Shown here in pieces: positions 9,001 to 18,000 of a stretch of 46,543 nt of DNA (positions are counted from its first letter, which is position 1; every line of letters starts with the position of its first letter). A program made the position numbers. The DNA is taken from positions 1 through 46,543 of IMG/VR virus record IMGVR_UViG_2651869692_000004. One strand, written 5' to 3'. The DNA is from a virus (taxonomy: Duplodnaviria; Heunggongvirae; Uroviricota; Caudoviricetes).

Positions 9001-12000
9001 GCGCCTTGAGACATTCCAGATTGTTCCATCGCTAGGTTTAAGCGATCAGCAAGAGTTTCTTTTTTCATAAGTTTTAATTTATACGCTTGCGTATTGATGG
9101 TCAAAACACGTTTTGCTATTGATTGGGTTAATACGCATTGCTATTATCTATTCATTGCAATACCAATAGGAATTGATAATGACAAATCAAACCATTCAAC
9201 TCGCAATCAGTATTACAGGTAGTCAAAAACGACTGGCAGATCTATGCGGTGTAGCCCAACCCACTGTTTGGCGTTGGCTACACGGTGGCGGAATTGATGC
9301 CCGCTATGTAATGAAAATTGTCTCAGCCACTGGTGGAAAGATTAAACCAGCAGATATTCGTCCCGACCTCGCGCCATTGTTTAACGCGAGTAATTCTGCC
9401 GCCTAAACTGCGGCGTTAACTGATAAGGCAATGACTATGCAATCACTTACATACCAACAGACTAGCGGATTTAGCCCGACTGCGGTGATAAATCGTTCTC
9501 AAACAAAACAGGCGCCAGGCCACGAAAAAATCCGTGATGCCGTTCGCGCCTGGTCGGCTGCAGATAATCAGGATGTCGTTGCCACACTCATTGTGAATGA
9601 GTATCAGGAGCAGGGCGGCGGCACCATCGATTTCCCTGATGATGTCAGCCGTGCACGCCAGAAGCTGTTCCGCTTCCTCGATAACAAATTCGATTCTGAA
9701 AAATACCGAAATAACGTGCGTGAACTGACCCCGGCAATTCTGGCGGTACTACCGCTGGAATATCGCGGTTACCTGGTTGAGCAGGATAGCTTCATGGCTA
9801 GGTTGGCTGAAATGGAAAAGGAACTCAGTGAGGCAAAACAGGCTGTCATTCTCAACGCACCACGCCACCAGAAACTGAAGGAAATTAGTGAAGGTATTGT
9901 GTCGATGTTTCGTGTGGACCCGGATCTGGCTGGTCCATTGATGGCGATGGTTACTACCATGCTGGGGGCGATATGACAGGTTCAGAAATGGCGAAAGCCG
10001 GTCTGCTGGAACAGAACCGACTTTCAGGTGCAAATCGTAACACACTCATTGCGGGAGGAATTATGGCAAACACTGCTGAGATATTCAATTTTCCAGTGCC
10101 GGATGCGGCACAAAAGGAGCCGCGCGTGGCAGATCTCGATGATGGTTATACGCGCATTGCAAATGAGTTGCTGGAAGCTGTGATGCTGGCCGGATTAACA
10201 CAGCACCAGCTTCTGGTCTTCCTGGCTGTCATGCGCAAAACATATGGCTTTAATAAAAAACTGGATTGGGTGAGCAACGAGCAACTTTCCGAATTGACCG
10301 GGATATTGCCGCACAAGTGTTCTGCTGCAAAAAGCGTTCTGGTAAAGCGTGGGATTCTTATTCAGAGCGGGCGGAATATCGGCATCAATAATGTGGTCAG
10401 TGAATGGTCAACATTACCCGAATCAGGTAAGAAAAATAAAGTTTACCTGAAAGAGGTAAATTTACCTGAGTCAGGTAAGAAAAGTTTACCCAAATCAGGT
10501 AAAGGCACTTACCCGAATCAGGTAAACACAAAAGACAAACTAACAAAAGACAATATAAAACCTTTTTCGTCCGAGAATTCTGACGAATCCTCTGACCAGC
10601 CAGAAAATGCCCTTCCTGTGGTGAAACCGGATGCTGCGATTCAGAGCGGCAGCAAGTGGGGGACAGCAGAAGACCTGACCGCCGCAGAGTGGATGTTTGA
10701 CATGGTGAAGACCATCGCGCCATCAGCCAGAAAACCGAATTTTGCAGGGTGGGCTAACGATATTCGCCTGATGCGTGAACGTGACGGACGTAACCACCGC
10801 GACATGTGCGTGCTGTTCCGCTGGGCATGCCAGGACAACTTCTGGTCCGGTAACGTGCTAAGTCCGGCCAAACTCCGCGACAAGTGGACCCAACTCGAAA
10901 TCAACCGTAACAAGCAACAGGCTGGCGTGACAGCCGGAAAACCAAAACTCGACCTGACGAACACTGACTGGATTTACGGGGTGGAGCTATGAAAAACATC
11001 GCCGCACAGATGGTTAATTTTGACCGTGAGCAGATGCGCCGGATCGCCAATAACATGCCGGAACAGTACGACGAAAAGCCGCAGGTACAGCAGGTAGCGC
11101 AGATTATCAATGGTGTGTTCAGCCAGTTACTGGCAACTTTCCCGGCGAGCCTGGCTAACCGGGACCAGAATGAACTGAACGAAATCCGCCGCCAGTGGGT
11201 TCTGGCTTTCCGGGAAAATGGGATCACCACGATGGAACAGGTTAACGCAGGAATGCGCGTAGCCCGTCGGCAGAATCGACCATTCCTGCCATCACCCGGG
11301 CAGTTTGTTGCCTGGTGCCGGGAAGAAGCATCCGTTAACGCCGGGCTGCCAAACGTCAGCGAGCTGGTTGATATGGTCTATGAGTATTGTCGGAAGCGTG
11401 GCCTGTATCCGGATGCAGAGTCTTATCCGTGGAAATCAAACGCGCACTACTGGCTGGTTACCAACCTGTACCAGAACATGCGGGCCAATGCGCTTACTGA
11501 TGCGGAATTACGGCGCAAGGCTGCCGATGAACTGACTTGTATGACCGCGCGAATTAACCGTGGTGAGGCGATACCTGAACCAGTAAAACAACTTCCTGTC
11601 ATGGGCGGTAGACCTCTAAATCGTGCACAGGCTCTGGCGAAGATCGCAGAAATCAAAGCGAAGTTCGGACTGAAAGGAGCAACTGTATGACGGGCAAAGA
11701 GGCAATTATTCATTATCTGGAGACGCACAAGAGCTTCTGTACGCCGGACGTTGCTGCGACAACAGGTGTGACATTAACCAGCATAAATCAGGCTGCGGCA
11801 AAAATGGCGCGGGCAGGAATCCTGGTCATTGATGGTAAGGTCTGGCGAACGGTGTATTACCGGTTCGCTACTAGAGAAGAACGGGAAGGAAAGGTGAGCA
11901 CGAACCTGATTTTTAAGGAGTGTCGCCAGAGTGCCGCGATGAAGCGGGTGTTGGCGGTATATGGGAGATTAGTTATTACTTGATTTGATGGTTATCTCGA

Positions 12001-15000: not shown

Positions 15001-18000
15001 TTAAGGTATTTAGTATTTATATATATGTGATTTTGCTCGTTTAGTTTATTTATGGCCTCAAATGCCTTTGTGATGCGTTCTTCCATTTTAGTGATATTTT
15101 TCCACGTGCAATTACTAATTGCAGCATCACATTCATTATTAAATGCTCTAGTAGTTAGCCTAATATTTCTGTCTGTCATTTTTTTACCCTCTGCTCGAGA
15201 GCCTTCAACAGTCCATTGGGTTGTGCAATATACTGCACCAGAGTGGGTTTTATCCCGCAGCATTAATTTCTGTTCATCCCTGATGGATTTTATTTTGTTT
15301 TTAAATTGCTCTGAATCTTCAAAATTAAAATGAGGTTCGTAAAATCCTAGTTCGGCTAGTTCAACATCTTCTGAATAAATAGAAATTTGCTTTACTAGCT
15401 TATCATATATTTCTTTCTTCTCTTTATAAGTTCTTCTTAGTTCTTGGATTTGTTTATTGATACCATCCATTTTTTCAATGGTGTTTGTTAGTTCATTATT
15501 GGCATTTTCTTTTACTTTTTGGGACTCTTCTTTTATAATGGAGCATTCTTGCTCTGTTTTCTCAATAAGCTTCTTACATTCCTCTTCCACATTAAAATAA
15601 TCTGCAAAGCGAGATTTGTATTCTTCATTTTTTTGATTGCTATCACTTAATTCTAATTGTATTTTTTTGATGCGTTTGATTGCAGCTATATATAGAACAA
15701 GAACAACCAATAAAAATATGATTGCAAGTAATAGTGGAGTTTGAGTCATTCGTGCTATTCCTTACGGACAATTTAAGACGTTTTGTATTAAATCCTGTTC
15801 AATGTGTATGCGGGTGATTGCTACCGCTTACAATCTTCATAATTATCAGTTAGATAGACTCGCTAGTAAATAATTTCATTTTTTGCAATATTCTTATTGA
15901 ATATTTCAATTTATGAAATGAACTCTTTATCCTTTCAAGGCGAAAGGTTTCTTCTTCGGAAATATTTGCTCTCGTGTGACGTATAAAGGCCTTTGATTTT
16001 TAAAAAACAGTAGGGAATAATATAGTTACTGTCGGCCTGAACACCCGGCGGTGGGGTTGCGCTAAACGGGGACGTTTATGCGCACATACAATCTAAACTC
16101 TCTTCTCCCTTCACAGATGCAGAAATGCACCTGCGATTTTTTGCATCCAACGTTTGACCTCTGCGGAGGTGAAGCGTGAACCTACCACAAGATGGCATCA
16201 AATTACATCGCGGCAACTTCACCGCTATCGGCCAGCAGATCCAGCCTTATCTGGAGGACGGAAAATGCTTTCGCATGGTGCTTAAACCGTGGCGTGAGAA
16301 ACGCAGTCTTTCCCAGAATGCACTCAGCCACATGTGGTACAGCGAAATCAGTGAATACCTCATCAGCAGGGGTAAAACGTTCGCTACTCCAGCTTGGGTA
16401 AAAGATGCTCTCAAACACACATATCTCGGTTATGAAACCAAAGACCTGGTTGATGTCGTAACCGGTGATATCACCACTATCCAGTCGTTACGCCATACCT
16501 CCGATCTTGATACCGGAGAGATGTATGTCTTCCTGTGTAAGGTTGAAGCCTGGGCGGTGAATATTGGCTGCCACCTGACTATTCCGCAGAGCTGCGAGTT
16601 CCAGCTGCTCCGCGACAAGCAGGAGGCGTAATGGCTACACCGCTTATTCGTGTCATGAACGGACACATCTACAGAGTACCAGATCGTCGTAAGCGTAAAC
16701 CGGAGCTGAAGCCTTCCGAAATACCAACACTGCTCGGATATACCGCCAGCCTGGTTGATAAAAAATGGTTGCGACTGGCAGCAAGGAGGAATCATGGCTG
16801 ATTTGAGAAAAGCAGCGCGTAGTCGGGAATGCCAGGTAAGAATCCCTGGCGTATGTAATGGCAACCCTGAAACGTCTGTACTGGCACATATCCGGCTGAC
16901 TGGATTGTGCGGCACCGGTACCAAACCGCCAGACCTGATTGCCACCATTGCATGTTCTGCCTGCCACGACGAAATCGACCGCCGCACACATTTTGTCGAT
17001 GCTGCATATGCAAAAGAATGCGCGCTGGAAGGTATGGCGAGAACACAGGTTATCTGGCTGAAAGAGGGGGTTATTAAGGCGTGAATACCTACAGCATCAC
17101 ATTACCCTGGCCTCCGAGCAATAATCGCTATTACCGCCATAATCGCGGGCGCACGCACGTCAGCGCAGAGGGGCAGGCATACCGCGATAACGTCGCCCGA
17201 ATCATTAAAAACGCAATGCTGGATATCGGCCTGGCTATGCCTGTGAAAATCCGCATTGAGTGCCACATGCCGGATCGCCGTCGCCGTGACCTGGATAATA
17301 TTCTGAAAGCGCCGCTGGATGCGCTGACGCATGCGGGGTTGCTAATGGACGATGAGCAGTTTGATGAAATCAATATTGTGCGCGGTCAGCTCGTTCCTGG
17401 TGAGCGGCTGGGGATAAAAATCACAGAACTGGAGTGCGCATGAATAACCACTATTTACAGTTTGTGCGTGAGCTGCTCATTATCGCTACCGCCGATTTGA
17501 TTGGGGCAACAAAAGGTCAGCTTGAAGCCTGGCAGGAGAATGCCATGTTCGATACAGGGCGTTACAGGCGAAAAAAAATCCGGTACCGCGATGAAGTGAC
17601 TGGAAAAATGATAACGCGGGATAATCCACCAATCCCGGGAAAGCAATCGCTGGCGAAGGTGACGTCAATTCCTCTGGTCAGTCCGATTGAGTTTTCGACA
17701 TCATCGTGGCGGCGGGCTGTTCTGTCTCTTGAAGAACATCATAAAGCCTGGTTGTTGTGGTGTTACAGCGGGAGTATTTGTTGGGAATATCAGATCGCGA
17801 TAACACAGTGGGCGTGGAATGAATTTAATACTCAATCCGGTACCAGAAAAATTGCAGGGAAAACGCAGGAACGCCTGAAAAAATTAATCTGGCTGGCGGC
17901 GCAGGCAGTAAAAGCAGAACTTTTTGGTGGGGAAGGTTATGAATACAAGGAGCTGGCATTACTGGTGGGAGTGACAACTAAAAACTGGTCCAAAACATTT

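Follow-up and report, generated by a model that had tools for sequence, protein, structure and literature searches.

SNIPE and a predicted SAMHD1-type deoxynucleoside triphosphate triphosphohydrolase as probably independent cargo genes of a lambdoid prophage

Two reverse-strand genes in one AT-rich slot

Do the two reverse-strand genes in the AT-rich island of a lambda-like (lambdoid) prophage form one two-gene system, or are they independent modules, and what might each of them do? The island lies between ren and a NinB-type gene (the ren-NinB slot) in IMG/VR record IMGVR_UViG_2651869692_000004, positions 1-46,543 of which (46.5 kb, hereafter referred to as the window) were analyzed. One of the two genes encodes SNIPE, a nuclease known from phage defense, and the other an HD domain protein (gene and protein hereafter HD) that is predicted to be a deoxynucleoside triphosphate (dNTP) triphosphohydrolase of the SAMHD1/EF1143 type. 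The two are very probably independent single-gene modules stacked in the same slot, because genomes with SNIPE only and loci with HD only both exist, HD is part of a discrete insertion or deletion (indel), each gene has its own hairpin, the genes differ in their divergence, and SNIPE was active alone in published assays. The features concerned are as follows.

11967-16057: AT-rich variable cargo segment, from ren to the conserved sequence upstream of ybcN (alignment of the flanks with prophage L022, break in guanine-cytosine (GC) content)
11970-14187, minus strand: HD cassette, inserted DNA of 2218 bp that SNIPE-only prophages lack (blastn, compared with EC96 (L002) and L003)
12221-14135, minus strand: core of the putatively mobile HD unit, with upstream region, open reading frame (ORF), and downstream hairpin (blastn, 77-80% nucleotide identity across genera)
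12340-13887, minus strand: HD gene, 515 amino acids, predicted SAMHD1/EF1143-type dNTP triphosphohydrolase (Pfam, phmmer, AlphaFold2/Foldseek, residues)
12258-12304: hairpin about 35 nucleotides downstream of the HD stop codon (folding energy)
13888-14187, minus strand: AT-rich region upstream of HD, presumed promoter (GC content, ribosome-binding site, conservation across genera)
14190-14223, minus strand: hairpin in the intergenic stretch, about 24 nucleotides past the stop codon of SNIPE, on the edge of the cassette of that gene (folding energy)
14247-15749, minus strand: SNIPE (PD-lambda-1), 500 amino acids, membrane-anchored GIY-YIG nuclease defense protein (PADLOC, Pfam, residue numbering)
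15750-16057, minus strand: region upstream of SNIPE inside the cassette, presumed native promoter (co-inherited with SNIPE)

A preliminary description of this DNA had placed an AT-rich island with a sharp compositional drop at 11984-16175, and sliding-window analysis bore out the drop. In 400-bp windows, the GC content was 0.50-0.55 before the island, 0.27-0.34 from approximately 12000 to 16000, and back to about 0.50 by 16000-16400. The mean over 11984-16175 was 0.333, compared with 0.481 for positions 1-11983 and 0.539 for positions 16176-46543. The 4192-bp window with the lowest GC content of the whole 46.5 kb was 11958-16149 (GC 0.33), and the island lay 4.3 standard deviations under the remaining 4.2-kb windows of the sequence. 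Homology to prophage L022 stops at 11966 and restarts at 16058 (aligned flanks 11000-11966 and 16058-17310), and the variable segment is therefore 11967-16057; L022 holds 856 bp of different cargo, with two small forward ORFs, in place of the island. Of the edges proposed earlier, the left one was sound (17 bp off), whereas the right one overshot by about 118 bp and took in conserved sequence upstream of ybcN.

The two large reverse-strand genes, described beforehand as about 360 bp apart, were recovered as intact minus-strand ORFs at 12340-13887 and 14247-15749 with a spacing of 359 bp, and they are the only ORFs of more than 93 amino acids within 11967-16057. To the left of the island, cro, a CII-like gene, O, P, and ren lie on the plus strand and a CI-type repressor gene on the minus strand, so that both island genes are antisense to the early-right (pR) operon and run opposite to the cI-cro-cII-O-P-ren side. 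Directly to the right follow the NinB-type gene (ybcN), ninE, ybcO, rusA, ylcG, and an intact Q. Since this DLP12-type set of nin genes is complete, the earlier statement that the island had replaced most of the nin region does not hold.

The gene at 14247-15749 can be identified as SNIPE, formerly PD-lambda-1 (PMC9519451, Vassallo 2022; PMC13190303, Saxton 2026), with near certainty, because it combines a full-length PADLOC match with the order transmembrane segment, DUF4041, GIY-YIG and with the published residue numbering. The match to the PADLOC model PD-Lambda-1 (PDLC03976) aligned residues 1-484 to profile positions 1-484 of 491 (E-value (E) 5e-198, 657 bits). Pfam domains were DUF4041 (PF13250) at residues 198-252 (E 1.2e-19) and the GIY-YIG-like T5orf172/MUG113 (PF10544, PF13455) at residues 357-449. 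Judged by inspection, a hydrophobic stretch near the N-terminus (residues ~6-23, LLLAIIFLLVVLVLYIAA), followed by KRIKK, is the predicted transmembrane anchor. Residues E223, W257, and E414 carry exactly the numbers of the mutant residues used in PMC13190303, where the E414A mutant was dead, and the gene is 98.8% identical to the PD-lambda-1-annotated gene of phage PhiR26_1. Published SNIPE has an inner-membrane anchor and requires both DUF4041 and the nuclease, associates with ManYZ and the tape measure protein, cleaves siphovirus DNA during injection, and leaves induction of the resident prophage unaffected (PMC13190303). It is a single protein, and in the published work plasmid-borne SNIPE was expressed by itself from the native promoter (PMC9519451, PMC13190303). 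With the end-to-end family match, the same domain order, the same residues 223, 257, and 414, and a lambdoid prophage location, the window gene shows no substantive difference from the published protein and is an allele of it. It is thus an already-known single-gene defense and adds nothing new in itself.

Copies of SNIPE are disrupted in several E. coli strains (genome matches H1, H7, H8, H24, and H25, and loci L001 and L002). The insertion sequence IS1 interrupts the gene in TB354, Evo1, and CP137705, IS5 interrupts it in one genome that was deposited twice (NZ_CM144251.1, strain LP-26-E1-261; NZ_OZ392478.1), and frameshifts are present in 23AR0806 (L001 14648-16149) and EC96 (L002 3639-5140). 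In HD-bearing strains with a broken SNIPE, HD is still annotated as intact. The repeated inactivation in related strains suggests that SNIPE carries a cost.

Evidence bearing on the independence of the two genes

Among 5426 complete E. coli genomes, SNIPE DNA was present in 131 and HD DNA in 21. As all 21 HD genomes carry SNIPE, the other 110 of the 131 SNIPE-bearing genomes have SNIPE alone; phage PhiR26_1 likewise has PD-lambda-1 without HD. In blastn alignments of the window with the prophages of E. coli EC96 (L002) and strain Res13-Lact-PEA12-26 (L003), homology stops at 11969 and restarts at 14185-14188, and the HD cassette replaces 210 bp of EC96. Within the cassette, 12221-14135 recurs at 77-80% nucleotide identity in HD loci of Serratia, Enterobacter, Proteus, and an enterobacterial contig (blastn of 11900-14300 against L005, L006, L009, L020, and L023). 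Judging from this conservation, 12221-14135 appears to be a self-contained unit that moves.

Outside E. coli, HD homologues stand alone in Proteus, Serratia, Enterobacter, and Yersinia (68-77% identity) as well as in Klebsiella and Vibrio (43-44% identity), with no SNIPE within 8 kb of any of them. Neither was SNIPE found nearby in the 17 loci retrieved via individual HD homologues (L004-L011, L013-L021). A scan of one genome per species, covering Proteobacteria, Bacteroidota, Bacillota, and Myxococcota, yielded 54 species-level loci with HD relatives, none of which had SNIPE-like sequence within 10 kb.

The two genes also differ in how far they have diverged. Between two E. coli lineages, HD differs by 10% (synonymous divergence (dS) 0.27) and SNIPE by 0.7% (dS 0.02), which points to separate histories. 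The second HD allele, from E. coli SCU-111 (L012 3339-4886), is linked to a SNIPE gene that is 99.3% identical, and it shares 89.9% nucleotide and 84.9% protein identity with the window HD (dS 0.27; ratio of nonsynonymous to synonymous divergence (dN/dS) 0.27). These alleles are nearly the same up to codon 100, and their differences are concentrated in codons 101-250 and 301-500. This pattern looks like exchange by recombination inside the HD gene; positive selection was considered and rejected in favor of recombination, given the overall dN/dS of 0.27.

The competing interpretation is that HD and SNIPE constitute one interdependent two-gene defense system, in which HD would, for example, regulate or complement the nuclease. 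It can draw on a linkage pattern that counts against independence, namely that HD lies directly adjacent to SNIPE, in the same orientation and at a distance of ~360 bp, in all 21 HD-positive E. coli genomes. One shared ancestral insertion is the most likely cause of this linkage. An interdependent system is difficult to reconcile with the 110 of 131 SNIPE-bearing E. coli genomes that do without HD, with defense by SNIPE alone in published assays (PMC13190303), or with the 54 other species and 17 retrieved loci in which HD has no SNIPE near it. Moreover, the two genes have a hairpin between them, HD forms a discrete indel and has diverged differently from SNIPE, and at least four HD-bearing genomes have a SNIPE gene broken by IS1 or a frameshift together with an HD gene annotated as intact. 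Hence, we regard a two-gene system as highly improbable, and of the two options that the preliminary description had left open, independent modules are retained.

Identity and possible role of the HD protein

The HD protein is annotated by NCBI as 'HD domain-containing protein'. Pfam returned the HD domain only (E 8e-7), NCBIfam returned nothing above threshold, and phrog_35128, matched over its full length, bears the PHROGs label 'unknown function'. Searches of solved structures with phmmer matched human SAMHD1 over query residues 19-430 (412 residues, E 4e-26), the other matches being EF1143 (Enterococcus) and Aquifex 2hek. A profile built from 60 homologues reached only SAMHD1, EF1143, 2hek, and 2q14 among solved structures (E 9e-32). 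The AlphaFold2 model had a predicted local distance difference test score (pLDDT) of 88.9 and a predicted template modeling score (pTM) of 0.90. When it was compared with the PDB using Foldseek, the top 50 matches were all SAMHD1 chains, the best of them in tetramers, over ~510 columns and with template modeling (TM) scores of 0.60-0.71.

Residues were mapped in a MAFFT alignment of the HD protein, SAMHD1 119-502, and 108 full-length homologues, and we take their functional roles to be those known from the SAMHD1 structural literature. The metal ligands H67, H120, D121, and D243 (SAMHD1 H167, H206, D207, and D311) are invariant in the 108 homologues, as are R64, H124, H129, H167, Y247, D251, R299, and Y307 (SAMHD1 R164, H210, H215, H233, Y315, D319, R366, and Y374), and E168 (SAMHD1 E234) is kept in 107 of them. 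All counterparts of allosteric site 1 are present in the HD protein (D37, Q42, R45, and R379 for SAMHD1 D137, Q142, R145, and R451). Those of Q142, R145, and R451 are invariant, and the position of residue 37 (window ~13777-13779) varies among the homologues (D in 69, N in 26, G in 9). SAMHD1 D137 sets the guanine specificity of this site; the D137N variant of SAMHD1 binds xanthosine triphosphate (XTP) in PDB 6txa. The variation at residue 37 may reflect different activator nucleotides among HD homologues. In allosteric site 2, R266, H309, and K310 are kept (SAMHD1 R333, H376, and K377) and R352 is replaced by K. On the strength of these residues and the modeled fold, HD is probably an active dNTP triphosphohydrolase, and we have fair confidence that it would be under nucleotide control.

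Compared with human SAMHD1, the HD protein is directly alignable at the sequence level over ~410 residues and has the same predicted fold (TM 0.6-0.7), identical metal ligands, catalytic residues, and site 1, and a genomic context of antiviral type. It differs in its low identity (22-24%), a partly replaced site 2, a longer insert between the HD motif and the D243 motif, and the lack of a SAM domain, which the Pfam scan did not detect; the alignment starts at query residue 19, equivalent to SAMHD1 119. Among bacterial relatives with a solved structure, EF1143 of Enterococcus faecalis (PDB 2o6i/3irh/4lrl) and Aquifex 2hek score best (E 1e-26 to 1e-44 by sequence or profile). They are HD dNTPases that, like the predicted HD enzyme, stand alone and have no SAM domain. 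Their genes are chromosomal and usually regarded as housekeeping genes, whereas the HD family is sparse, AT-rich, mobile cargo of prophages and islands, and their alignments to the HD protein are split into two or three segments. Among the searches made, HD is the closest mobile bacterial relative of human SAMHD1, with catalytic and guanine-site residues intact. It is also the new half of the island, as its family has been missed by the defense catalogs (with a marginal match in PADLOC v2) and is of 'unknown function' in PHROGs.

Nucleotide depletion is an established defense, known from Dgt-type dGTPases (10.1101/2021.04.26.441389), CloA of Clover (PMC12265719), and Vdg (PMC13519002), and the validated HD-superfamily enzymes acting in this way are all Dgt-type (10.1101/2021.04.26.441389; PMC12265719; PMC13519002). 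Allosteric control by nucleotides is known for CloA (PMC12265719) and Vdg (PMC13519002). With Dgt-type dGTPases and CloA, HD would share the proposed logic of an HD-superfamily triphosphohydrolase that starves phage DNA synthesis, but it belongs to another branch of the superfamily. Tal et al. described their own enzymes as not directly alignable to SAMHD1 and, these being too distant from it, left the descent of SAMHD1 open; they also considered that EF1143-like dNTPases 'may also' defend (10.1101/2021.04.26.441389). Unlike their enzymes, the HD protein is directly alignable to SAMHD1.

Several known systems were tried as identities or relatives of HD and rejected. A Dgt-type defensive dGTPase was dismissed after the PADLOC model PDLC02374 scored 16.7 bits (E 9e-4, residues 59-153 only) and TIGR01353 scored 23.4 bits against a cut-off of 152.35; the 60-homologue profile reached no Dgt-type structure at E ≤ 0.01. 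Clover does not apply, as the Pfam scan showed a nucleotidyltransferase domain in neither HD nor SNIPE and 11967-16057 contains no other ORF of more than 93 amino acids that could be a CloB-like partner. Vdg, an octameric dGTPase, was set aside as a Dgt-type enzyme, and PDB 9mr6, considered as a bacterial defense protein, is fungal SAMHD1.

Roughly 7,800 homologues of HD were detected. Where inspected, their genomic surroundings are diverse. In Proteus, HD lies in an icd-associated island with CBASS, in Serratia alone, in Enterobacter beside HigBA, and in an enterobacterium beside an AAA_15/21 ATPase and a NACHT protein. A P2-like prophage of Yersinia carries it on the opposite strand between tail genes, and in Klebsiella it follows the tail-fiber genes of a P2-like prophage; it adjoins a lambdoid tail-tip J gene in L023 and is part of a toxin-antitoxin-rich, integron-like array in V. 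cholerae. Neighbors at other HD loci include Zorya II, Lamassu, and DarTG. As single-gene cargo, the family is thus met with repeatedly, both in defense islands and in prophages of at least two unrelated types. In 49 of 53 species, the AT content of the gene exceeded that of its flanks (GC 0.31 vs 0.62 in Aeromonas and 0.30 vs 0.61 in Dickeya). Sparseness in E. coli, AT-richness, and recurrence in prophages and defense islands fit a gene involved in conflict.

Based on these data, we propose that two single-gene 'morons' would be stacked in the ren-NinB slot, HD having been inserted as a 2.2-kb cassette after, and next to, SNIPE. The HD enzyme would be a dNTP triphosphohydrolase that is switched on by nucleotide binding at a guanine-specific allosteric site and lowers dNTP pools, so that a superinfecting phage could not replicate its DNA. 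The prophage might then hold two layers of defense, a block of entry by SNIPE and, behind it, a block of replication by HD. Upon induction, expression of both genes could, speculatively, fall as N-antiterminated pR transcription enters them at their 3' ends.

Several observations weigh against such a role of HD. Many homologues stand among housekeeping genes, the PADLOC dGTPase model barely matches HD, and no report tying the family to phage defense was found in the literature searched, including the DefensePredictor and P2/P4 hotspot papers. In allosteric site 2, replacements affect F337 (to S), K354 (to S), N358 (to S), and R372 (to Q), and with the site conserved only in part, regulation may differ from that of SAMHD1. 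The census of neighbors (129 ORFs at 16 gammaproteobacterial HD loci, PADLOC and Pfam) is of qualitative use, as it has no matched control. A sigma-70 promoter scan of the island returned 17 sites versus 18.6 expected by chance, which is uninformative in AT-rich DNA. Finally, a constitutive dNTPase would also harm the replication of the prophage itself.

Some of these points would also suit an active dNTPase without an immune function, a fitness gene that tunes the nucleotide pools of the lysogen (mutation rate, stationary-phase survival) or restrains the replication of its own prophage. Firmicutes enzymes of the EF1143 type are regarded as pool regulators, several homologues lie amid housekeeping genes without defense neighbors, and the literature searched reports no defense phenotype. 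Nevertheless, the sparse and patchy occurrence (21/5426 E. coli genomes), the strong AT-richness relative to host genomes, and the recurrence in prophage cargo slots and defense islands fit conflict over housekeeping, and we consider this account unlikely. The substrate could also be something other than a dNTP, such as an immune signaling nucleotide, (p)ppGpp, or nucleoside triphosphates (NTPs), making HD a phage counter-defense or regulatory phosphohydrolase. HD-superfamily substrates are many, temperate phages carry counter-defense genes, and both parts of site 2 and the base-contacting residues differ (L150 to N, Q375 to F/Y); yet the full catalytic set of SAMHD1, with its HE dyad and the equivalents of R164, Y315, and Y374, is invariant, the modeled whole-protein fold matches SAMHD1, and the only characterized enzymes reached by the searches are the dNTPases SAMHD1 and EF1143, next to 2hek and 2q14, which were deposited without a named function. 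A different substrate therefore seems quite unlikely. Still less credible is an island of silent, decaying foreign DNA, for instance silenced by H-NS, to which the very AT-rich composition and the repeatedly broken SNIPE genes of related strains (IS1, IS5, frameshifts) might point. Both window ORFs are full length, HD is under purifying selection (dN/dS 0.27 between lineages), its catalytic residues are invariant in 108 homologues, and SNIPE alleles of the same type are active under their native promoter (PMC13190303).

Taken together, we slightly favor a function of HD in anti-phage defense. The two-moron explanation as a whole is the best available and is held with the same slight preference, because its overall standing is set by its weakest step, the role of HD in defense. 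If HD defends via dNTP depletion, the SAMHD1/EF1143 branch of the HD superfamily would join the known nucleotide-depletion defenses, HD would offer a simple bacterial model for SAMHD1 allostery, and the finding would bear on the descent of SAMHD1 from prokaryotic immunity. An entry nuclease and a replication-stage dNTPase in one slot would also be a handy natural case for studying layered defenses. A stronger proposal is that HD might be the true prokaryotic counterpart of SAMHD1, a self-regulating restriction factor encoded by one gene that temperate phages (lambdoid, P2-like) carry as cargo; it would have kept the guanine-nucleotide switch, read a dNTP surge as the infection signal, and need no partner protein. 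We offer this tentatively and lean somewhat against it; if true, SAMHD1 restriction including its allostery would be an inheritance from bacterial or phage immunity and not a convergence.

Slot, transcription signals, and other features of the prophage

The ren-NinB slot is a real cargo hotspot, as had been expected of a recognized site for accessory and defense genes. Its content varies among related prophages and phages, and one of the two genes in the window is the validated defense SNIPE, which here only illustrates this property of the slot in lambdoid prophages. The cargo is SNIPE alone in EC96 and in the isolated temperate phage PhiR26_1, SNIPE together with a gene with a P22AR C-terminal domain (antirepressor-type, RefSeq) in L003, where the slot gene is labeled 'Rha protein' in phage records, Rha and hypothetical ORFs in phage PhiR5_1, and an acyltransferase and a lipoprotein in phage PhiR30_1. 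The island resembles the morons of other prophages (lambda nin, rex, and lom slots; P2 defense hotspots) in comprising self-contained opposite-strand units of foreign composition between conserved phage genes, with alternative cargo in the slot among related phages. It differs in that two are stacked and in that the second, HD, comes from a family absent from the PADLOC v2 defenses and of 'unknown function' in PHROGs. Indel boundaries, GC break, conservation of the unit across genera, and downstream hairpins fit this classification; the promoter scan was at chance level (17 vs 18.6).

In L003, an 89-bp stretch that lies just upstream of ybcN (window 16058-16146) is duplicated (L003 5450-5538 and 7384-7472). 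The two copies flank the extra module with the P22AR C-terminal domain gene, to the right of SNIPE, and the repeat may be a recombination joint for cargo exchange in the slot. The conserved right flank of the slot also contains a 33-codon ORF (16078-16179), which overlaps the start of ybcN and is the conserved hypothetical WP_072129709.1 in RefSeq copies. Direct or inverted repeats that would hint at a transposon or att site were not found within 11800-16400, where merely short AT-rich repeats at chance level occur, and an Rfam scan of 11600-16600 (E ≤ 0.1) detected no RNA families.

Each gene is preceded by an AT-rich stretch, as described beforehand (GC 0.33 for HD and 0.39 for SNIPE). Of the region upstream of HD (13888-14187), ~150-250 bp are conserved with HD loci of other genera, and a GGAAAG ribosome-binding site lies 5 nucleotides ahead of the HD ATG. 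The region upstream of SNIPE (15750-16057) is co-inherited with the gene in SNIPE-only prophages and includes a weak -35/-10 match at 15870-15842, which is not above chance. The folding energy of the HD hairpin (12258-12304) is -23.3 kcal/mol (z -8.6) for the minus strand and -24.3 kcal/mol (z -6.5) for the plus strand, and the hairpin is part of the unit that HD loci of other genera share. As it continues into a T-run on the plus strand alone (TTTGTTTAT), it would best terminate transcription that enters the HD 3' end from ren. The SNIPE hairpin (14190-14223; -18.5 kcal/mol, z -6.35) is retained in SNIPE-only prophages, in which homology restarts at 14188. Both hairpins were found by eye and by folding, and the terminator scan missed them because neither has a coding-strand T-run.

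A copy of the window prophage with 99.7% identity is present in E. coli 23AR0806 (L001), where it is integrated beside icd (L001 636-3142) and has int and xis. The HD homologue of Proteus mirabilis (76% identical; L005 1-10017) is located in an island with many icd fragments that also contains CBASS (CD-NTase and Cap15), mSLOG, DUF488, and DuOB genes. The icd integration hotspot is common to the two genera.

Elsewhere in the window, an ORF of 317 amino acids on the minus strand (7361-8314), which adjoins the CI-type repressor gene in the slot of lambda rexAB and is in part of low GC content, gave an end-to-end match to the PADLOC candidate defense family PDC-S42 (E 3e-86) and lacks any Pfam domain. 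Possibly, the prophage has a third defense cargo gene here. Just downstream of Q, three tRNA genes (Met-type with CAT anticodon, Arg-TCG, and Arg-TCT) lie at 18340-18589, as in many Stx-type lambdoid phages, and are followed by an ORF of 616 amino acids at 19670-21520. A short patch of low GC content (500-bp windows below 0.38) is located at ~24100-24400, just past an Rz-like ORF at 23675-24199.

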